Of a DNA stretch of 64,000 nt, positions 2,126 to 42,271 are shown piece by piece. The position numbers and the translations under genes are program-made. How positions within the stretch are numbered: the first letter of the stretch is position 1; the number at the start of each line of letters is the position of its first letter. The notes under the pieces were generated by a model that saw nothing but the letters and a program-made list of their open reading frames with translations, ran no database searches and was not told where the DNA came from. The stretch comes from a virus (lineage: Duplodnaviria; Heunggongvirae; Uroviricota; Caudoviricetes), in the IMG/VR virus record IMGVR_UViG_3300042568_000774, one strand, 5' to 3'.

Positions 2126-3118
2126 TTAATAACCGATTGAAGTTGAATTTGAATAACCGGTATTAATTAAATAATAATTTGATGACCCTCCATTTACCGG
2201 AGAGTTGATTGTTATACTTTGAACACCCGGATATGTTATTCGTAAATCCGTTGTTGATGTGTTTATTATATTGTATTGAGCCGCAGTGAAAAGTCGTGTA
2301 TTAGGTAACAAATCATTCCAAGTGGGTAATCTACCTATCCTTTTCATAAAAATGTGATATGCGTCAGATATGTTAATTCTACCATCATTATTTACATCAT
2401 AACGATAATAATCCAATGATGTGAATGTTCTTGAGATTGCTTTGGTGTTTGCGCCATAAGCGTCACTATTTTGTAATGTTGTTACCGGAGTTGGTACGTC
2501 AATTTGAAGATACCATTCAATCGAAGGATTAGATACTTCATTAATCACATATCTACCATTAGCATCTGTATATACGGTTTTAACATACTCCCAATTTGTA
2601 AATGTTACAATATATTCAAATTCTAACACATAAGGTAATGATACATTAGGCAAATCATTCCATTTACCACCCCCAACAAACTGAATGTAATCTTCATTAT
2701 TTGAGTTATTTGGTTCACCACCATTCCAGTTAGACCAACTAAACGGTTCACCCGTTACCCATCTCCATTGACCTTCTACAACTTCATCAGTCAATCCAAT
2801 CCAACCATTAGGCCATAAATTAAATAAAAAGTTGTTTTCGGCTAGTGAAGTTGATGTAACTAAATGACCACCCATATTTAAACAAGCCTGTCTCGCATCG
2901 GTCCAAGTCATAGAACCCGTAGACCTATAGTATGAATGTCCGTTATAATTGTTTTGAGATGTAAATCCGTTTAACGTTGGTGTTGTTCTTTTATATAATT
3001 TTACACCAACATTTTGAGCCCCACCACCTCCAGCGTTATAGATATAACCTGAATATGTAAAATTCTGACCAAAAGATATTGATGTGATAAAAAATAATAT
3101 AAAAAATAATTTATTCAT
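2126..3118 (-). CDS. secreted C-type lectin domain (CTLD) protein with a dockerin/EF-hand-like Ca-binding loop
   Basis: Signal peptide MNKLFFILFFITSISFGQ. Canonical CTLD motifs are present: CLNMGGHLVT, WIGLTD, GQWRWVTGEPF, NWNGGEPNN (EPN), EDYIQF, GKWNDLPN (WND). DVNNDGRINISDAYHIF is dockerin-like. Confidence 0.7.
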   Translation of the reverse strand: MNKLFFILFFITSISFGQNFTYSGYIYNAGGGGAQNVGVKLYKRTTPTLNGFTSQNNYNGHSYYRSTGSMTWTDARQACLNMGGHLVTSTSLAENNFLFNLWPNGWIGLTDEVVEGQWRWVTGEPFSWSNWNGGEPNNSNNEDYIQFVGGGKWNDLPNVSLPYVLEFEYIVTFTNWEYVKTVYTDANGRYVINEVSNPSIEWYLQIDVPTPVTTLQNSDAYGANTKAISRTFTSLDYYRYDVNNDGRINISDAYHIFMKRIGRLPTWNDLLPNTRLFTAAQYNIINTSTTDLRITYPGVQSITINSPVNGGSSNYYLINTGYSNSTSIGY

Positions 3119-7311: not shown

Positions 7312-9201
7312 TTATTTTTTAATCAATATTTTAGAAGTCATTGGTAAATCTTTCTTTCTTAATACTGCGATATATTCACCACTAGGTAAATAACCTAAAT
7401 TTGACATGTAAGTATATTCTCCTTCCGGCATTGATTGATTAACTATTACTTTAATCTCTCTACCATCTAAAGAATAAATCCCTAACCATGTATTCCCGTT
7501 TTCTGTAACTCTAAATTTTACATTTACCAAATCATCAACAGGATTTGGATAAACTGTCATATCACCAATTAATTTTCCAATATTCCCAACTCTCATAATT
7601 TGAACAATTCCATCCGTTGGTGTAATTTTAAGGTCTCTTGCAAATGTATCACCAGCATGTTTTCTAGTCACATATAACGGACTTACCATCCAATCACTTT
7701 GAATTTGTTTTGAAATGAATTGTAGAGTAAACGCCAATTCATTGTCATTTAACAATTTTGTATTAAGTGTCGGGTCATATCCCCCCCATTCAACTACATT
7801 ATCGTTAGGATTCATAAATGATAACCAACCACCAATTTTAGATTCCGCTCTAATCCCTTTGAAATCTAATAATTCACTATTATAATTCATCGCCAATTGT
7901 AATGAACCTAATTGTCTTCCGTTTGTTTTAACTGATACCGGAACTTCAACTAAATTTTCTTCATTAACTGATAAATTTGGATAGTGAACCTCAATAGTGT
8001 TTAATGTATTATTATCATATGTTGTAGTAACATCGATAATGTGTAATGGTGCGTTAGCAGGATTTATAATTTCAATTGGTGTCATACGAGCCATTTGGAA
8101 TCCTGTTCCGTTTGCGTCACCCGGAGCTGCTACGTAGAATGTTACTGAGTTTCCTGCTCCTGGTAAGATGTTGAACACTAAATCAGTTACACCCTGAATT
8201 GTAGATTGTAATGAAGTTGTTGCTCCGTTAATAGATGCGTATTCTGAAACACTAAAGAATTTAATATCCTTAACCGAGTTTGGCCAAGAAGTAAATCTTC
8301 CTGATACTCTTCCAAATACACCATAAACGTCTGATACAGTAATGTTGTTATCACCATTTACGTCAGCCGTATAAAAATCAAATCCTGTAGGTGTATCTTG
8401 ACCTAACACGAATCTGTTAATTTTTTGCGAATCAGACACGGAGATAATATTTCCTGTCGCCAATGTTGAACCGTTAACTCTAATTCTAACATCCCAACTT
8501 GTGATGTCTATTGGTAAGTTAGTGAACGTAAAGTTACCATCAACATCTGTTGTTGAAGTTGTTACCGTAGTCCAAGTTGATGCGGTCATTAATTTTTTCT
8601 CTAAAATAACAGGAATGTTTTTAGCACCTGAACCAGTTACGTTAGTGAATGTACCACTATAAGAAAATGTTTGTGGTAAGAATACACCACCAAAGTTTTG
8701 TAATGTAAGTGCGTAATCCATACCCGCTTGATTTGTAGCTGTTTGTGGGAATGTTTGCACACCTGAAAAAGTCATTGGTGTTGTAGACGTTAACGACGCA
8801 AATCCCGCAACGTGAGTTAAGTTTAACTTAACAAACGCACCATTTGGTATCGTAAACGAGGATAAGTTTCCGGTATATGACATAGTGATTGTCACAAACC
8901 CCACAGCTGGATTATCCACAAATTGTAGATACTGTGCATAAGATGTGTTTAATGACGTAACGTTTGAAACACCTGAAAAGGTGTTTTTGTCATAAAACAC
9001 TCTGAATTGTGCTGCGGTAATAAGTTCGGTTGTGTTGTTGTAAAAACACAAACCAACTTCAGTATTACCAGCGGCTGTTGTTGCTATTTGATAGGTCGCA
9101 TCAAGTGTCACGAAAGCCCCTGTTGTAGTTGGGGTTGGACAAACCTGTGAGAAACCTACTAAACCAACAAATAAAAATAGTAAGGTTACTAATTTTTTCA
9201 T
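7312..9201 (-). CDS. large secreted protein with a T9SS C-terminal sorting domain (Por_Secre_tail-like) and a dockerin-like loop
   Basis: Signal peptide MKKLVTLLFLFVGLVGFSQ. The C-terminus ...VYPNPVDDLVNVKF...GEYIAVLRKKDLPMTSKILIKK matches the type-A T9SS CTD pattern. DVNGDNNITVSDVYGVF is dockerin-like. ATG confirmed at 9201. Confidence 0.7.
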   Translation of the reverse strand: MKKLVTLLFLFVGLVGFSQVCPTPTTTGAFVTLDATYQIATTAAGNTEVGLCFYNNTTELITAAQFRVFYDKNTFSGVSNVTSLNTSYAQYLQFVDNPAVGFVTITMSYTGNLSSFTIPNGAFVKLNLTHVAGFASLTSTTPMTFSGVQTFPQTATNQAGMDYALTLQNFGGVFLPQTFSYSGTFTNVTGSGAKNIPVILEKKLMTASTWTTVTTSTTDVDGNFTFTNLPIDITSWDVRIRVNGSTLATGNIISVSDSQKINRFVLGQDTPTGFDFYTADVNGDNNITVSDVYGVFGRVSGRFTSWPNSVKDIKFFSVSEYASINGATTSLQSTIQGVTDLVFNILPGAGNSVTFYVAAPGDANGTGFQMARMTPIEIINPANAPLHIIDVTTTYDNNTLNTIEVHYPNLSVNEENLVEVPVSVKTNGRQLGSLQLAMNYNSELLDFKGIRAESKIGGWLSFMNPNDNVVEWGGYDPTLNTKLLNDNELAFTLQFISKQIQSDWMVSPLYVTRKHAGDTFARDLKITPTDGIVQIMRVGNIGKLIGDMTVYPNPVDDLVNVKFRVTENGNTWLGIYSLDGREIKVIVNQSMPEGEYTYMSNLGYLPSGEYIAVLRKKDLPMTSKILIKK

Positions 9202-10182: not shown

Positions 10183-11097
10183 CTATTCATTTTCAGACAT
10201 TTCAATTAATTCTTTATAAATGCTTTGTTTTTGTTTTTTATTCATCTCATAAGCTCTCGCCAATCTTGTTAAACCAATACCCGCTCCAAATCTTGGAAAG
10301 AAGTTCAAAGATAAGAATTCTTCCAATTCTTTTTCAACTCTGTCTTTTCCAAACAATTCAAACAACTTATCGGAATAACCCCCATCTTCAATTGTGTAAA
10401 ACATTTCTTTCATCTTTTTAACATCACAACTTCTCTCAGCAGAGCCAATAGTTTCTTGTCCAAACATAATCACATCCACTTTGTTAAAGATGTTATCTTC
10501 TCCGTGTTTCATATTCCAAAATGGATTGGTTCGTATTGGGAAGTTTTGAAGTGAGATAATATCACCTTTTTCTTTCCACATTTTTGATTCGTGTTCATCT
10601 TCTAATATTTTAACACCACCGTATTCCTCACACACATCTTCATAATTAACTTCAACCGGTGTTGTGAATCCTAAAAATTGTAACAATTCAAGTTCTAACG
10701 CAACTAAATCTTCCATAGTCCCTTTTGATTCAAATTCAAACATTGGAAAGATTAATTCGTGACGACCCGGGATTGGATTCTTTTCTTCTCTGTATGATGT
10801 TGAAATACAGAATACTCCATCCCATTCAGGATTTTTTAATAATTCATACTCCAACCACATTTGTCCGGTTTGAGGTAATGGCCAAATTTCACTACTATAT
10901 TCAAATGTTTTCACTGAATGTGGATTTTCGCAAGCAGCTAAAATAGATAATCGTGATTGAGATGGAACCTCAATAAAGTTCTTGTTAACAAAGAACGTTC
11001 TCATTTTTTGTACCAATTCGTGGTAAGTTTTTGTGTTTTTCATAGTTTTAATATTTAAGGTTAATTGTTCACATATGGGCAAAAAAAATCCCTTCAA
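10183..11097 (-). CDS. class II aminoacyl-tRNA-synthetase-like catalytic core / AsnA (aspartate-ammonia ligase)-like protein
   Basis: Motif-like segments match the class II aaRS core fold: FIEVPSQSRL, FCISTSYREEKNPIPGRHELIFPMFEFE, GAGIGLTRL. The length (304 aa) fits AsnA-like enzymes. Confidence 0.5.
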   Translation of the reverse strand: MKGFFLPICEQLTLNIKTMKNTKTYHELVQKMRTFFVNKNFIEVPSQSRLSILAACENPHSVKTFEYSSEIWPLPQTGQMWLEYELLKNPEWDGVFCISTSYREEKNPIPGRHELIFPMFEFESKGTMEDLVALELELLQFLGFTTPVEVNYEDVCEEYGGVKILEDEHESKMWKEKGDIISLQNFPIRTNPFWNMKHGEDNIFNKVDVIMFGQETIGSAERSCDVKKMKEMFYTIEDGGYSDKLFELFGKDRVEKELEEFLSLNFFPRFGAGIGLTRLARAYEMNKKQKQSIYKELIEMSENE

Positions 11098-36728: not shown

Positions 36729-37154
36729 ATGGAAAATAGTATAACAATTTTATTAGATAGATGTTTTGAGTGTGGGACAATAGGGGATATTGATTTCCAT
36801 CACGTTGTTCCCAAGAGTAAAGGGGGAACTCAAATGATACCCTTATGTTTATCTTGTCATTCAAAGGTTCACGGAGAACATATGTTAGAAATTAGAAAAC
36901 TTGCCGTGGAAGCCAAAAAGAAAAAAATGAAAGATTTTAATGAAAATGGAATACCTCATAATTTTGGTAGAAAAAATGGGTCAAAAGAAAGTGAGGAAAC
37001 ATTTATGAATAAACAAACAACCAAAGATATCATTTATCTATTGTCGTTTGAGGGTAATACTTTAAGGGGTATTGCGGAAATGGTTAAATGTTCGACAAAA
37101 ACAGTTCAAAAAGTTAAAAATATTGTTAATGAATTAAAAAACCCCACTCGTTGA
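36729..37154 (+). CDS. HNH endonuclease (homing-endonuclease-like) with a C-terminal HTH-like segment
   Basis: CFECGTIGDIDFHHVVPKSKGGTQ..PLCLSCHSKVH matches the HNH motif (C..C...HH..P...GG....LC..CH..H). It is the only plus-strand gene in this stretch of the array and sits between repeat copies 2 and 3. Confidence 0.7.
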   Translation: MENSITILLDRCFECGTIGDIDFHHVVPKSKGGTQMIPLCLSCHSKVHGEHMLEIRKLAVEAKKKKMKDFNENGIPHNFGRKNGSKESEETFMNKQTTKDIIYLLSFEGNTLRGIAEMVKCSTKTVQKVKNIVNELKNPTR

Positions 37155-37902: not shown

Positions 37903-38766
37903 TTAGTTAATCATAAACTTAACATCATTATCTCCAATCATACCATAAAGTTTATTCTTGGATAATCCCTTATTATATACCTCCTTGACAATTACCTCAT
38001 AACACTTGTCGATGTTCTTACTAACAGGTAACTCACCCATTTGAAGTGTCTTGTTGATTAATCTCTTAATATCAAGGTTGGGGGTGTACATAACATTAAT
38101 ATATGCTTTGATGTATTGTCTCTTCCCACTATTAATAATACTTGGAATCAATGAGTTCAATATTTTTAAATCCCTATCAACATACTCATACATCTCATCG
38201 GTCAATAATAAATCCCCCTCCTTGAATTGTTGATACCAAACGTATCTATAATCACCCTTATACCTATTGATGATTGTTAAGATAGTTTCGTGTTCCAACA
38301 TATCATACTTCTCAAATAATTCTTTATATAGAATATATGGTTTAATCCCTAATAAACATTTGGAATACATAAAATTGGTAATGTCCCAAGTCTTAGATGC
38401 CGTATTCAATAACTCAACAATTGAAAGAGATTTTTCCATAACCTCAATGTCGAAGTCCTCACGGATAATAAAAGATACCGGTAACTCCAATTCAGTACAA
38501 GCACTATATCTGTGTTGCCCCTCGATAATCTTATATGGTTTTCCATCATTAGATACATTATCAATCCCAATGATAATAGCAGATTCCAAAATCTGTTTCT
38601 TACTCAATGATTCCTTAATGTTGTTTAGATTGGTTTGGTCTATTTCTCGGTTTCCCTTAATGAAACCAAATAGATGGTAGTCTTTGGTTATATAAACCTT
38701 TGTTAATTCTTGAACATTTCCGTAGATTGGAAATGTCATAGTTTTCTCTTCGAAAATCTCTGTCAT
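37903..38766 (-). CDS. ParB/Srx-superfamily (DUF262-like) nuclease-domain protein
   Basis: GKPYKIIEGQHRYSAC matches the (D/E)GQ(H/Q)R motif of ParB-like and DUF262 N-terminal domains. 287 aa. Confidence 0.55.
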   Translation of the reverse strand: MTEIFEEKTMTFPIYGNVQELTKVYITKDYHLFGFIKGNREIDQTNLNNIKESLSKKQILESAIIIGIDNVSNDGKPYKIIEGQHRYSACTELELPVSFIIREDFDIEVMEKSLSIVELLNTASKTWDITNFMYSKCLLGIKPYILYKELFEKYDMLEHETILTIINRYKGDYRYVWYQQFKEGDLLLTDEMYEYVDRDLKILNSLIPSIINSGKRQYIKAYINVMYTPNLDIKRLINKTLQMGELPVSKNIDKCYEVIVKEVYNKGLSKNKLYGMIGDNDVKFMIN

Positions 38767-38971
38767 AATAAATTGTTTTTAAATTCTTTATTGTCGTCAA
38801 ACGACCGTTTAATTTCTATTTACCAACCTTAACGTGCGCACGCTCTACTTGTTAGTCTGATACAAAGATAAAAACAATATTAAAAAAAAAAACCATTTTT
38901 ACAAAAAAAATCCCAAAAATTTTTTTTCACTATTTGAGTATATTCAGGAATCAAAAGATTTTTACCGGAAA

Positions 38972-39000
38972 ATAAAAAACCCCTCCGTAAAGAAGGGGTC
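38972..39000. terminator. terminator AAAAAACCCCTCCGTAAAGAAGGGGTC
   Basis: CCCCTC/GAAGGGG stem. Confidence 0.65.
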
Positions 39001-39350
39001 TATCTTATTTGTTACACCATCCGAAACAAATCTTTCCGAAGGTTATTCTACTAATGAAATTACAAATCATTCTCATACCAAAATTATTTATTAGTTTATT
39101 AATCAATTATAAATATAAACAAACTAATCCACACTATCAACCGGGGGGACGATTTTTTCCCAAAAATTTTTTATGGTTTTTTTTAACGAATACTTTGTTT
39201 AAGGGATTATCCCCCCTATTTGACTGTCAATATGTCATATATGGAGGGGGGATACGGGGGAGGGAGGGGGTAGCCCCCGGTATAGGGGGTAATGTAGGGA
39301 GGAGTTATCAAAAGTTATTGATACCTCCCCTCCGGTATGATGTTAATAAG

Positions 39351-39791
39351 TTATTGTAATATGTAATGGTCACGTCTGATGTTACGTGGTATGAATACTT
39401 GTTCCCCTCTGAAGTTCTCGTAAGGGTAAGTGATACTAAAACCTTCCGGTAGTTCTTCATTCATATTAGTAAGTAGTTCTTCAATCTTTGCTGAGGTATC
39501 GTATGATAGGTCTTTAATGTGGGGGAACTTATCATAACTAAATGGTCCACCTAATGAATACATGGGATAAGGTCCTTCATTTTCTATTATTCTTTTCCAA
39601 GTATCATCTGTGTCTGCGTCAAAGAACTTGGCCAACTTATCATAGTCAACCATGAAGTCGATGTTTAACATTGTGTCGTACTTAAGAAAGTCCTCTGATG
39701 GTTTCCATCCTACGATGAAAGGGAATCTACGACTGATTGCCTTAATCATCTTATCGAGAGCACGTTCTTGTTTTTTAGTTAGTTGTTCCAT
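39351..39791 (-). CDS. hypothetical protein (146 aa)
   Basis: ORF within the GC-rich island. Confidence 0.45.
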   Translation of the reverse strand: MEQLTKKQERALDKMIKAISRRFPFIVGWKPSEDFLKYDTMLNIDFMVDYDKLAKFFDADTDDTWKRIIENEGPYPMYSLGGPFSYDKFPHIKDLSYDTSAKIEELLTNMNEELPEGFSITYPYENFRGEQVFIPRNIRRDHYILQ

Positions 39792-40230
39792 ATGTTAATA
39801 AATACTTTGATTGGGGGAAAAATAATACATTAATTATTTGGTGGTGTCAAATGTTATTCGTACCTTTGTATCACTGAATTGGTAATCAACCCAACAGGGG
39901 GCGGACCGGATGGTGGAAGAGTGGACTCCACAGCGCTTTATATTTTTTATATAAATCCCCCATTTACTGAGAATATGATAATCGAACCTACATACTTCTG
40001 AAAATAATTCGTAAAGAATTATCTTATTTGTTGTGAATGTGATAATTTCTTCTTATCTTTGTATATTAAAACATTTATACTATGATGATTATATTCGATA
40101 TCCTTATTGGGATTAGTGTTCTCCTATTCATTGGAGAGGTTGTTGCTCAGAAACTTCCTGAAGGGAATTCCTTTGTGAAGTGGTGGAGAACTCATATCAT
40201 TGGAAAACTTCCTGATGATGACCCCCGCTT

Positions 40231-40560
40231 TTAGTCACCACTTGCAATATAGTCCTCGACACATTGAAGTGAGTGTTCTCTAATCTCCATTGTCATTCCT
40301 GTCAGGTCCTCACTTGACAGAGGGGAATCTATATTTATCTTCTCTATAATATCCCCCATCTCACACTCGGTTAATAATAAAACCCTTTGGTTGAGTGGCT
40401 TTCTTTGTCCCGGAAAGTTAATGTGATTGTATTCACACATTCCTGTATACTGCTCATAACTATAATTCACAACATACTTATCCCCCGTTTTAATTACCTC
40501 AGTCGTGAAATCATTTAGAGATTTCTGACCCTTACTTATACTTGTTCTGTTTTGGTACAT
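40231..40560 (-). CDS. hypothetical protein (109 aa)
   Basis: ORF within the GC-rich island. Confidence 0.4.
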   Translation of the reverse strand: MYQNRTSISKGQKSLNDFTTEVIKTGDKYVVNYSYEQYTGMCEYNHINFPGQRKPLNQRVLLLTECEMGDIIEKINIDSPLSSEDLTGMTMEIREHSLQCVEDYIASGD

Positions 40561-41372
40561 ATAATAAACACTTATTTGTTAATAAATATAAGGGTCTAAT
40601 GTTTATTCTACATACTCATGGGGGGAATTGTTGATAACTTTTTATGTTAAATTTCTTGATTTTGTCAAAATGTCAGGTCTGCTTTGTGATGGGGATAATC
40701 CTTTTACCCACTTTTCCCCCCATTTAATGTGCAGGATTTACCACTTTTTACCACCGAATAGTGTCATGACGCTATGTCAGTGACCACTTTTTCCCCCCTG
40801 TAGGTACTCTCAGGACCAATAAATTAGGTATATACGTTTCCCAGTAAATTATGTTAGTTATGGTGTATGATGCGGTGGAACACGTAGTGTGTTAGGAAGA
40901 TTACTTCAACGACCCGTCAGGTGGTATTAATTGACCACTAATGGACGAACTCAATAGGGTATAATATGGGACACTACAGAGACACTTGACACTCTTAAAA
41001 GTTATGTTTCGTATCAGTGTAGTCAGTTTAAAACTCACAAGAATGATACAAAAGATAACTTACCATAACATCCACTAATTGTTCATTTCATTCCCTTGTT
41101 CATTGCAAATGAACATTATCTAATAATGAACACCATAACGGATTACTAATCGTGTCTGTAGTTTGTCCCCCTTCTTTGTGGGGGGGAATTGTTCCCCCTT
41201 AATGGGGGGGGAATTGTTTACTTGACTATTAATGGTCAATAGTAAAATGATTATAACATTAAAACGCTATAAAGTATGTTTATACCATAATATGGTTATA
41301 AAATAGTAAAGGATGAAACTATGAGTGAATTCCGGAGTGAAACGTAGGACTATGAACGAATAGATTTATCGT

Positions 41373-41846
41373 TTAGTATTTTTTGAATACTACATACATA
41401 ATATATCCACCATCATAAAAGTATCCATAATCTTTTATTACCATATTAAACTCTTCACCTATTCGTGGGAATCTATTTGTTACGATACTCTCTATAACTT
41501 CTGATTCGGACATATCTTTATATTGTGGTTTGTTATATACTGCTGACCAACAAGAATCTACCCATCCTTCGTAGAATACTATTATATCATTATCTAATTC
41601 GTTTTGAATATATACTTGGTCATCATAACCGTCCCAATCATCCACTAACATATCGTAATCAGGTTTCTCTATATTGTGGTTTGGATTTTCATTAACTTGT
41701 TTGAAGAAATTATCTATTATCTCCATTCTTGTAATATCTGACATTGAACAGGACTTATATTGTTCTTCCCCCATTTTTTCGAATCGGTTCTCATCAATTG
41801 AATCCATCATTTCTTTTATCCTATGTATATTCTCGTGTAAGTTCAT
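41373..41846 (-). CDS. N-motif family protein, MNL variant (MNLHENIHRIKEMMDSI...), acidic/aromatic
   Basis: Conserved N-motif. ATG confirmed, preceded by TATATTTATTAGT. Confidence 0.55.
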   Translation of the reverse strand: MNLHENIHRIKEMMDSIDENRFEKMGEEQYKSCSMSDITRMEIIDNFFKQVNENPNHNIEKPDYDMLVDDWDGYDDQVYIQNELDNDIIVFYEGWVDSCWSAVYNKPQYKDMSESEVIESIVTNRFPRIGEEFNMVIKDYGYFYDGGYIMYVVFKKY

Positions 41847-42001
41847 ACTAATAAATATAAAAAAAAGGAGAATGTTACTTCCCCCTTTTCGTAGTAAGTA
41901 TGTTTAATTACTCTGTATATTTTTTTCATAACTCAAATATATATAATTTCCCCCACGTTATCAATAGAAATGTTTTATCTTTGTATGATATTTATATTGA
42001 T

Positions 42002-42271
42002 ATGAAAATGATTATAACTGAAAGTAGAATGTATAATGTGTTTGTGAAATATATTGATTCACAATATGACTTATCATACAATATTAAAACCCGAGAATTT
42101 ATAGATAAAAATAATAATATCTTTGGATATGTTGGGGGAGGAGTTTTTTATTATGGTGGTTTATCTACGGAATTAAACTTGGAAGGGTTCTTTGGTAATA
42201 AAACAAATAAGATGTTAAAAATTTATTTGAGAGATAAATTTCCTGATACACCTATATACTCTATTGAATAA
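42002..42271 (+). CDS. N-motif family protein on the plus strand (MKMIITESRMYNVFVKYID...)
   Basis: ATG at 42002, preceded by GATATTTATATTGAT. Recent paralogue of 42284..42652: the N-terminal nucleotides are near-identical, and both genes are followed by the TCCCCACGCTTT repeat. Confidence 0.55.
   Translation: MKMIITESRMYNVFVKYIDSQYDLSYNIKTREFIDKNNNIFGYVGGGVFYYGGLSTELNLEGFFGNKTNKMLKIYLRDKFPDTPIYSIE

Follow-up and report, generated by a model that had tools for sequence, protein, structure and literature searches.

The interval from 38767 to 41372 of IMG/VR record IMGVR_UViG_3300042568_000774, a 64,000-nucleotide (nt) stretch of Caudoviricetes DNA that we call the window, is a composite conserved module of about 2.5 kb found in uncultivated giant (jumbo) phages of Bacteroidota. 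It holds three protein genes (ORF146, ORF50 and ORF109), a gene for a small structured RNA of about 75 nt (39874-39948, plus strand) and two non-coding stretches, region A (38.9-39.35 kb) and region C (40561-41372, about 0.8 kb), which are most likely cis-acting sites recognized as DNA. The comparative evidence shows the small RNA to be a genuine, previously uncatalogued structured RNA gene, predicted to be an independent transcription unit. For the explanation as a whole, in which a gene trio, a small RNA and cis-acting regions A and C make up one module, we put the chances a little short of even.

About 25 relatives, all clearly distinct, share one order of elements: first region A and ORF146, then a short unit without coding sequence, and after it ORF50, ORF109 and region C. 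The genes that flank the module vary from phage to phage. Within it, nt identity among relatives is 73-90% for the non-coding parts versus 24-54% amino-acid (aa) identity for ORF146 and ORF109, and at the level of these alignments region C proves more conserved than the neighbouring proteins. A preliminary description made from the letters alone had seen here a GC-enriched, nearly non-coding island with two short open reading frames (ORFs). Its limits fit the module boundaries closely and every motif it listed is present, but three ORFs take up about 35% of the interval, leaving about 65% non-coding, and the enrichment is slight (35.2% versus 31.2% G+C). The window as a whole, at about 31% G+C, is densely packed with small ORFs, the majority on the minus strand.

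A degraded pseudogene region without conserved elements, which that description named as the finding that would overturn its view, is clearly excluded by the conserved elements in relatives, and alignment to related phages, one of the checks it proposed, found the island conserved. One could still regard the non-coding stretches as decaying gene remnants or neutral spacer, pointing to short spurious ORFs and to an insert at 38938-39150 that is specific to this genome. This idea is already contradicted and is hardly credible: conservation is higher in the non-coding parts than in the flanking proteins, 25-51 distinct sequences retain invariant blocks of 8-40 nt, and length is constrained while codon periodicity is missing.

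The small RNA gene has its own promoter, covarying helices and a U-run. The promoter (39838-39868, plus strand) consists of a -33 TTG (39838-39840), a 20-nt spacer and a -7 box, TACCTTTG (39861-39868), and is kept in relatives as TAYCTTTGTAYCAC. Downstream of it lie hairpin P0 (39874-39882 paired with 39891-39897), a G-run, the short hairpin P2 (39905-39907 with 39912-39914), the 16-mer GGAAGAGTGGACTCCA, a short variable segment and a T-run; a plausible closing helix, P1, pairs 39898-39903 with 39934-39939. The invariant core occupies 39915-39930, with the mini-hairpin P3 inside it, and has the consensus GGAAGAGURGACUCCA, written (G)GAAGAGURGACUCCA for the family. The U-run spans 39937-39948, and CCCCC at 39957-39961 is an alternative distal partner.

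Several independent measures support this structure. A covariance model (R1) built from 30 compact members of the family, with the window's own subfamily left out, finds a single match in the window, at 39890-39943 on the plus strand (29.8 bits, E 5.5e-8; next best E 1.3). In an alignment of the subfamily (A6, 13 sequences), 97.6% of proposed-pair cells are standard pairs, and sliding the 3′ partners lowers pairing to 32-53%. The same alignment has 17 double-change cells versus 6.4 +/- 2.1 in shuffles (0/500), with compensatory changes in four of the seven P0 pairs and in one P2 pair. Across the wider family (alignment A7), P2 alone shows 51 double-change cells versus 18.5 +/- 4.2 (0/500). The subfamily has 50 G.U cells and no A.C cells when read on the plus strand, and this fixes the strand of the RNA as plus.

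The family is large. Scanning IMG/VR with the 16-mer returned 81 stretches, about 45 of which have a common layout: promoter, optional 5′ hairpin, G-rich strand, a P2 that is free in sequence and length, invariant core and T-run. In 30 of 49 copies TAnnTTTG, the -7 box of Bacteroidota promoters, precedes the core by 26-85 nt, and a T-run follows in most copies. Over the IMG/VR loci, model R1 gives 68 matches, some of which lack the exact 16-mer. Viral contigs often carry three to five copies (four or five on some contigs), each with its own promoter. This multi-copy, promoter-driven organization, together with the invariant junction, suggests that the RNA probably acts in trans and presents its junction to one conserved partner, a protein or a ligand. 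It is probably transcribed by the host RNA polymerase, early in infection. In the multi-copy phages of L044, L046 and L047 (IMG/VR contigs 3300012147_000006 and 3300012031_000006), each RNA copy is preceded not by TAnnTTTG but by a repeated promoter-like TTGTAACTTTTT-N12-GTTATAC, which implies that promoters of more than one type serve the family, possibly across several host groups.

Phages are known to make small RNAs from their own promoters and terminators, lambda oop RNA being an example. The RNA described here is likewise a short independent unit with a host-type promoter, covarying helices and a U-run, adjoining a non-coding control region. Unlike oop-type RNAs, it comes from a family with multiple copies in many phages, and it is not evidently antisense to a neighbouring gene. 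Its core and junction architecture match no Rfam 15 family: searches of 38500-41600 and of a compact family member gave only sub-threshold, chance-level matches (E up to 10), and no Rfam family reached its gathering threshold anywhere in the window. The genes 3′ of the RNA are unrelated across phages, and we therefore rejected a cis-regulatory leader for one gene family. A host origin or mimicry of a host RNA was likewise rejected: a search of 185,579 prokaryotic genomes placed full-length matches on contigs of metagenome-assembled genomes (MAGs; mostly 1.7-27 kb) and none in an isolate genome, the isolates having the bare 16-mer only, at chance frequency. Resemblances to the HK022 put RNA, 5S rRNA loop E, the hammerhead ribozyme, a Cas12a repeat and the glutamine riboswitch were considered and set aside as chance likenesses or as impossible to test. 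The literal sequence returned only irrelevant matches in the searchable literature.

Other observations temper this view of the RNA. The P1 helix has a mean score of 3.65, versus 3.56 +/- 0.06 with partners swapped, and is without family-wide statistical support; its register also varies between members (GGGGCG/YGCUUU in the window, GUACAG/CUGUAC in L056, ACGGGC/GCUCGU in L057 and UAAGG/CCUUA in L066). The mini-hairpin GAG-URGA-CUC in the core varies too little for a covariation test. Because the family was gathered with the exact 16-mer, the invariance of the core is partly by construction; in the copies found later by model R1, AGAGUAGACUCC is still nearly unchanged. No partner or target of the RNA was found, and its 3′ end, placed by the U-run, is putative. 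Finally, there are predicted candidates for structured RNAs in IMG/VR, 10,006 of them unnamed (Fremin et al. 2023, PMC10690425), and the family may already be among these candidates.

Region C, between ORF109 and ORF157, is non-coding. A 3-nt periodicity is missing, as is any long ORF under genetic codes 11, 4 or 15, and hidden coding capacity was rejected on these grounds. Its left part (40605-40998) is an array of boxes: in an alignment of 25 sequences (A4), contiguous invariant boxes of 8-25 nt are separated by spacers that are variable in sequence and fixed in length. The boxes are GGGGGAATTGTT (40620), TGWCA-N3-TGTCA (40659-40676), TGGGGATAATCC (40688-40699) and TTACCACTTTTTACCACC (40738-40755), together with CAMTTTTTYCCCC, AGGACCAAT, GCGGTGGAACACGTAGTGTGTTAGG, CTTCAACGACC followed by a covarying 3-4-bp hairpin, and ATATGGGACAC..AGAGACAC. 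From GGGGGAATTGTT to the end of the palindrome described below, the distance is 458-462 nt in 20 of the 25 representatives. RNAalifold predicts about 55 pairs in the left ~460 nt, with a covariation term of -0.95 and no difference between strands; a large structured RNA was rejected here, the pairs being few, the covariation weak and a strand preference missing. One small hairpin, after CTTCAACGA, does covary (CCAC/GUGG versus CCCG/GGGG). To judge by the alignment, sequence-specific recognition at fixed spacing fits this pattern better than does an extensively paired RNA.

Two of these boxes, GGATTATCCCC and TGWCA-N3-TGTCA, recur as inverted copies in region A, 1.5 kb away. Regions A and C, which flank the gene trio and share inverted GGATTATCCCC and TGWCA-N3-TGWCA, are probably cis-acting sites bound by sequence-specific proteins. 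The shorter repeats that had been reported in region C were found again with small shifts. The 13-mer GGGGGGAATTGTT occurs three times, at 40620, 41181 and 41206 (about 0.1 occurrences expected by chance; the last two had been placed 2 nt too low, at 41179 and 41204), and the second copy is specific to this genome. The C-rich repeats CCACTTTT(T)nCC likewise number three (40708, 40741 and 40784, with offsets of 2-14 nt); they are not iteron-like, as had been proposed, since Tandem Repeats Finder reports no array there and the middle copy, TTACCACTTTTTACCACC, is the sole one invariant in relatives.

The right part of region C (40999-41382) is a chain of dyads over about 350 nt that folds well on either strand (z = -5.1 on the plus and -5.9 on the minus strand). 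It begins with an imperfect palindrome of 63 nt (40999-41061), and the segment inside it that GTATCA and TGATAC enclose is found in both orientations among relatives. This was seen as inverted blast matches of 87-92% identity inside a region aligned at about 72%, and as two haplotypes in alignment A4; among 22 distinct sequences, five have the window's orientation and 17 the opposite one. Hybrid sequences reveal that what lies between the GTATCA/TGATAC arms can flip while the outer arms do not. The flipped segment is about 27-40 bp, and the relatives are otherwise collinear. Such a flipping palindrome could be the sign of a DNA hairpin or cruciform. Flip-flop inversion of imperfect hairpins is known from parvovirus and poxvirus termini, and small hairpin-loop inversions occur in plastid DNA. 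The palindrome of region C resembles these systems in having two reverse-complement forms in genomes that are otherwise collinear, but unlike the parvovirus and poxvirus termini it is internal, and no nickase or resolvase lies nearby.

Next comes Module X (41080-41132), a symmetric 53-nt element of the form TGTTCAT-N10-TGTTCAT-loop-ATGAACA-N10-ATGAACA, followed by CCGGATTACTAATCGTGTC. Its four 7-mers are invariant and its spacers variable, and the seventh pair of the central stem covaries from T-A to G-C; the palindrome GTTCATTGCAAATGAAC that had been noted in this area lies at 41098-41114. Other relatives have Module Y here instead, a quasi-palindrome of about 75 nt unrelated to Module X, and L002 has both. 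Downstream of Module X a terminator scan finds two G/C-run hairpins on the plus strand (41166-41186 and 41191-41214, the second with the tail UUGUUUAC), which are followed by a dyad, TTGAC-N8-GTCAA (41222-41239, within 41166-41239). In relatives the stems of the G/C-run hairpins are kept and their loops vary. An AT-rich stretch of variable length (41240-41299), with abundant TATAC-type dyads in relatives, separates them from the last element, block 10.

Region C may have or lack, at varying positions, a small hairpin unit rich in G+C, GTGTCGGAGACCGACAC(ATAGTGGA) (L002, L026, L034); L026 contains it and L010, which is nearly identical, does not. At about 6485-6560 of L035, a 23-nt unit related to it stands in three tandem copies. 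The unit looks like a tiny mobile or expanding hairpin element.

Block 10 (41300-41382, plus strand) is an A/U-rich hairpin of 83 nt that ends in a U-run, UAUUUUUU, and overlaps the stop codon of ORF157 (41373-41846, minus strand), the right neighbour of region C. Exact matches to its 19/20-mers were found in 14 viral and 62 metagenome stretches. Its internal loops are invariant and its apex is variable. Among 51 distinct sequences there are two compensatory positions and, on the plus strand, 59 G.U versus 3 A.C cells; the consensus fold is -36.8 kcal/mol on the plus strand versus -21.5 on the minus strand. In L031, L037 and L172, block 10 stands alone, 60-80 nt 3′ of plus-strand ORFs (ORF122-like). 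The G.U asymmetry, the fold stability and this occurrence after ORFs indicate that block 10 works as plus-strand RNA, at least as a 3′ end element. These comparisons show it to be a second RNA-level element of the module, with the predicted behaviour of a plus-strand terminator. In L129, L131 and L147 it is accompanied only by the AT-rich stretch with TATAC dyads, and one 308-kb contig has two copies (L028, L037). Found alone, with the AT-rich stretch or twice, block 10 behaves as a separately shuffled unit.

Like intrinsic terminators, block 10 and the second G/C-run hairpin (hairpin 2, 41191-41214) are hairpins with U-rich plus-strand tails, and block 10 follows ORFs elsewhere. Strictly, a G+C-rich hairpin with a U-run was found at 41191-41214 (plus strand) and at 39001-38977 (minus strand), and block 10 is only a loose fit. 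It also differs from intrinsic terminators in its length, its A/U-richness and the invariance of its unpaired internal loops in all 51 sequences, a constraint far beyond what termination alone explains. Terminator-like hairpins are about five-fold enriched in the interval as a whole (14 versus 2.7 +/- 2.0 in shuffles), and the hairpin chain probably stops transcription coming from both sides. The preliminary description had offered structured non-coding RNAs as its alternative; this is borne out for the small RNA and for the terminal hairpin, neither of which it had singled out.

The RNA features of the right end raise the main rival explanation, that region C works mainly as RNA, perhaps along with region A's G-run tract: either a long plus-strand non-coding RNA or the 3′ untranslated region of an ORF50 mRNA, about 1.1 kb long. 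The boxes would then be binding sites for protein or RNA, the chain of 3′ stem-loops would end at the block 10 terminator, and the transcript would be antisense to ORF109. We consider this possible but doubtful. Its attraction is that block 10 has a plus-strand pairing signature and a far more stable plus-strand fold, serves as a 3′ element after plus-strand ORFs in other phages, and is preceded by a hairpin 2 that resembles a plus-strand intrinsic terminator; no terminator separates ORF50 from region C, loops and even entire modules change around preserved stems, and the length is constant, as is typical of structured RNAs. However, the left 460 nt has few predicted pairs, hardly any covariation and no strand preference, the right half folds equally well on both strands, and no host-type promoter lies on the plus strand between 40054 and 41941. 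A palindrome that occurs in both orientations would also turn G.U pairs into A.C mismatches, and Rfam offers no match.

We favour reading regions A and C as a DNA-level nucleoprotein site, and a replication origin is the most attractive single function for it, although as a specific assignment this is tentative and no more probable than the RNA rival. Region A provides much of the relevant anatomy. The poly-A/T runs previously noted at 38880-38930 are present, and next to them the 15-nt A/T-tract motif TCCCAAAAATTTTTT forms an exact direct repeat (family D7), with copy 1 at 38911-38925 (within 38903-38934) and copy 2 at 39158-39172; both copies, as TTTTTTCCARAATTTTTTT, are kept in L001, L010, L034 and L035. 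Between them lies the genome-specific insert of about 210 nt (38938-39150), seen as a gap in the blastn alignment to L001, which contains the canonical intrinsic terminator on the minus strand (39001-38977) found in the terminator scan. A G6/C3 hairpin, A/T-tract copy 2 and two boxes, AAGGGATTATCCCC (39201-39214) and TGTCA-N3-TGTCA (39227-39237), follow at 39143-39237 on the plus strand. The boxes are conserved in L023, L026, L028, L034 and L038, and have their inverted counterparts in region C at 40691-40701 (minus strand) and 40664-40675.

Region A ends in a G-run tract (39245-39335, plus strand) with a G-quadruplex (G4) motif at 39246-39270, alternating G5/C5 hairpins and a GGGAGG...CCTCCC hairpin at 39296-39335. 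The motif, GGGGGGATACGGGGGAGGGAGGGGG, has four G-runs of at least 3 with loops of 1-7 nt and is the only canonical one in the window; it lies in the G-tracts (39245-39302) that had been called G4-capable. Runs of at least 5 G or C are concentrated in the interval, with 21 of the window's 73 in 4% of its length (binomial P ~9e-13). Relatives keep in region A two TTTTTTCCARAATTTTTTT, a G6...C5 hairpin, AAGGGATTATCCCC, the TGTCA pair and a G-run tract with GGGGGGATAC. GGGGGGATAC and further G-runs occur in all of them and the arrangement varies by genome, which means that G-richness is conserved and not the exact sequence. In the proposed mechanism, the G-run tract might act as an R-loop or G4-prone primer zone and the AT-rich stretch as a melting region.

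Transcription-primed, R-loop-type origins include T4 oriF and oriG and ColE1 RNA II, and the mitochondrial CSB II is a comparable G-run. As in those systems, the island has a G-run on one strand of an AT-rich genome, near promoter-like sequence and a meltable AT-rich region, and it is G-richness that is conserved. It differs from them in that no promoter reading into the G-run has been established (a scan found no TAnnTTTG upstream of it on the plus strand) and in that the G-run and the AT-rich stretch are 2 kb apart. Iteron-type origins of phages and plasmids, such as lambda ori and P4 ori/crr, offer another comparison. The island shares with them repeated short motifs, an AT-rich stretch beside G/C clamps, a palindrome and a unique non-coding region, and, as with P4 ori and crr, related boxes stand on both sides of a small gene cluster. 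Unlike iteron origins, it is without a tandem array of 17-22-bp units, a recognizable initiator gene, DnaA-box enrichment or a skew signal.

Those differences are the main evidence against an origin. There are no tandem iterons (at least 3 direct repeats of about 17-22 bp): the direct-repeat families of the island are short and dispersed, and Tandem Repeats Finder reports only A-rich low-complexity rows at 38861-38910. Near-consensus DnaA boxes are at background frequency, 3 of 42 falling in the island versus about 1.7 expected, and a DnaA-box reading of TGGGGATAA was rejected for this reason. Cumulative GC skew, a check that had been recommended, falls steadily across the island without an inflection in the 64-kb window. 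No replication gene is adjacent; family and structure searches, which gave nothing decisive on ORF109 or ORF146, turned up no resemblance of either to an initiator, and no replication or terminase gene was seen among the roughly 40 window ORFs scanned, which include all neighbours of the island but not every ORF of the window. A purely DNA-level view also has to accommodate the plus-strand RNA signature of the last hairpin, and plausibly of hairpin 2 as well. The proposal that the island is a replication origin, packaging site or genome end thus found none of its testable defining features. What favours an origin or packaging site is anatomical: dyads, an AT-rich stretch, G/C clamps, fixed box spacing and a flipping palindrome. 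With iterons, a DnaA-box cluster, a skew inflection and contig-end clustering all missing, we can only infer an origin-like cis-acting site.

A packaging initiation site or physical genome end would give the palindrome a role: it would prime hairpin-mediated duplication of a terminal repeat, and flip and flop forms are the product expected of such hairpin-primed replication. The short repeated motifs and the AT-rich stretch would suit this too, and several independent assemblies are broken in or beside the island (L002, L281 and L289-L292, two of these contigs being about 150 kb long and starting at region A or ParB). We nevertheless regard it as unlikely. The module is internal to long contigs, at 49% along one of 318 kb and 87% along one of 215 kb, and the scanned ORFs include no terminase family. 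Contig ends, traced for 47 metagenome contigs, are common in the island and are spread over it, not stacked at one base. Strain-level variation, such as the insert at 38938-39150, explains the breaks at least as well as a physical end does. The only cluster, eight of the 47 contigs ending about 30-320 nt right of block 10 (equivalent to 41414-41700 in the window), falls where strains carry different flanking genes, a position suggestive of a recombination junction at the module's edge.

The inverted boxes also invite the idea that the gene trio is a mobile or invertible cassette between inverted repeats (GGATTATCCCC plus TGWCA-N3-TGWCA, at 39201-39237 and 40664-40704), or that the 63-nt palindrome is a site-specific inversion switch. 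An inverted 14-nt match (I17) that is 93% complementary over a distance of about 1.5 kb, module neighbours that differ between phages and an inner palindrome found in both orientations (5 versus 17 distinct sequences) are in keeping with it. Even so it is very unlikely: conservation reaches well past the inverted boxes on both sides, none of about 25 relatives has the trio turned round with respect to regions A and C, and the flipped segment is merely about 27-40 bp. No transposase, integrase or invertase domain was found in or beside the module, and ORF146, ORF50, ORF109, ORF157 and the ParB-like gene to the left contain no recombinase domain.

Read jointly, these results could mean that the small RNA founds a new, widespread class of phage-borne structured RNAs whose junction AGAGUAGACUCCA is kept by one universally conserved partner, and that the surrounding module serves a lineage of jumbo Bacteroidota phages as the centre for replication and control; we offer this as a speculative synthesis that may well prove wrong. 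The partner might be a host machine (RNA polymerase, ribosome or RNase) or a small ligand, which the phages would manipulate with one to five promoter-driven RNA copies, and the control centre would use the G-run/R-loop zone and the flipping hairpin. Jumbo Bacteroidota phages are abundant in lakes and oceans, and their control and replication are almost uncharted. An RNA family with a strikingly invariant core, present on many unrelated viral contigs and missing from Rfam, could be synthesized, probed and used as bait at once. The 0.8-kb region C, a compact cis element of fixed geometry whose hairpin flips naturally, is so far the strongest candidate that these genomes offer for an origin or a master control site. 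Should the origin idea not hold, block 10 and the hairpin chain would still be useful landmarks for transcription-unit boundaries and recombination junctions in metagenomic phage contigs.

The protein genes of the module are small. ORF146 (39351-39791, minus strand, 146 aa) and ORF109 (40231-40560, minus strand, 109 aa) are conserved, with counterparts in most related contigs, and 95 contigs are on record with the ORF146 protein. Neither sequence families nor solved structures nor predicted folds gave anything decisive on the function of either. ORF50 (40082-40234, plus strand, 50 aa) has a hydrophobic N-terminus and is convergent with ORF109, overlapping it by 4 nt. By tblastn it is recovered in L034 only (74% aa identity), and similar ORFs of 47-66 aa lie 3′ of the RNA gene in L001, L026, L028, L030, L034 and L035. 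Its promoter (40028-40061, plus strand) has the -7 box TATCTTTG at 40054-40061. A decayed duplicate of the -33 region of this promoter (40015-40061) is visible as AATCCCCC..TTTACTGAGAATATGATAAT at 39953-39990, and both copies are clearer in relatives.

On the left, the module borders a ParB-like gene (37903-38766; ParB_N/phrog_12305 assignment), whose host-type -7 box TATCTTTG (38863-38870, minus strand), found in the TAnnTTTG scan, marks the module's left edge. This gene is the left neighbour only here and in L001, and a parS/ParB link to the module was rejected on that account. To the right of the module, some relatives have ORF157 and others an ORF122-like gene.

The window comes from a jumbo phage with a Bacteroidota host. 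TAnnTTTG, mostly as TAYCTTTG, stands upstream of many window genes; one ORF has a cohesin domain and a C-terminal sorting domain of type IX secretion (T9SS); the only cultured relative found is a Flavobacterium myovirus, with 32% aa identity in one protein; and the close relatives, uncultivated viral contigs from freshwater and marine metagenomes, reach 318 kb. Megablast found no similar DNA among cultured phage records, and blastn with the small RNA gave only AT-rich noise there. There is no tRNA or tmRNA in the window; other ORFs encode a C-type lectin, a class II aminoacyl-tRNA-synthetase-like protein and thymidylate synthase. The accessory genes for the cohesin/T9SS, C-type lectin and synthetase-like proteins (7312-9201, 2126-3118 and 10183-11097, all minus strand) are unusual and also point to a Bacteroidota host. 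An HNH endonuclease ORF (36729-37154, plus strand), about 1.6 kb left of the module and on the strand opposite to its neighbours, may be a homing element. To the right, the ORF listed at 41900-42271 (plus strand) contains a consensus TATCTTTG promoter box at 41976, which indicates that the true start of this gene is probably further downstream.

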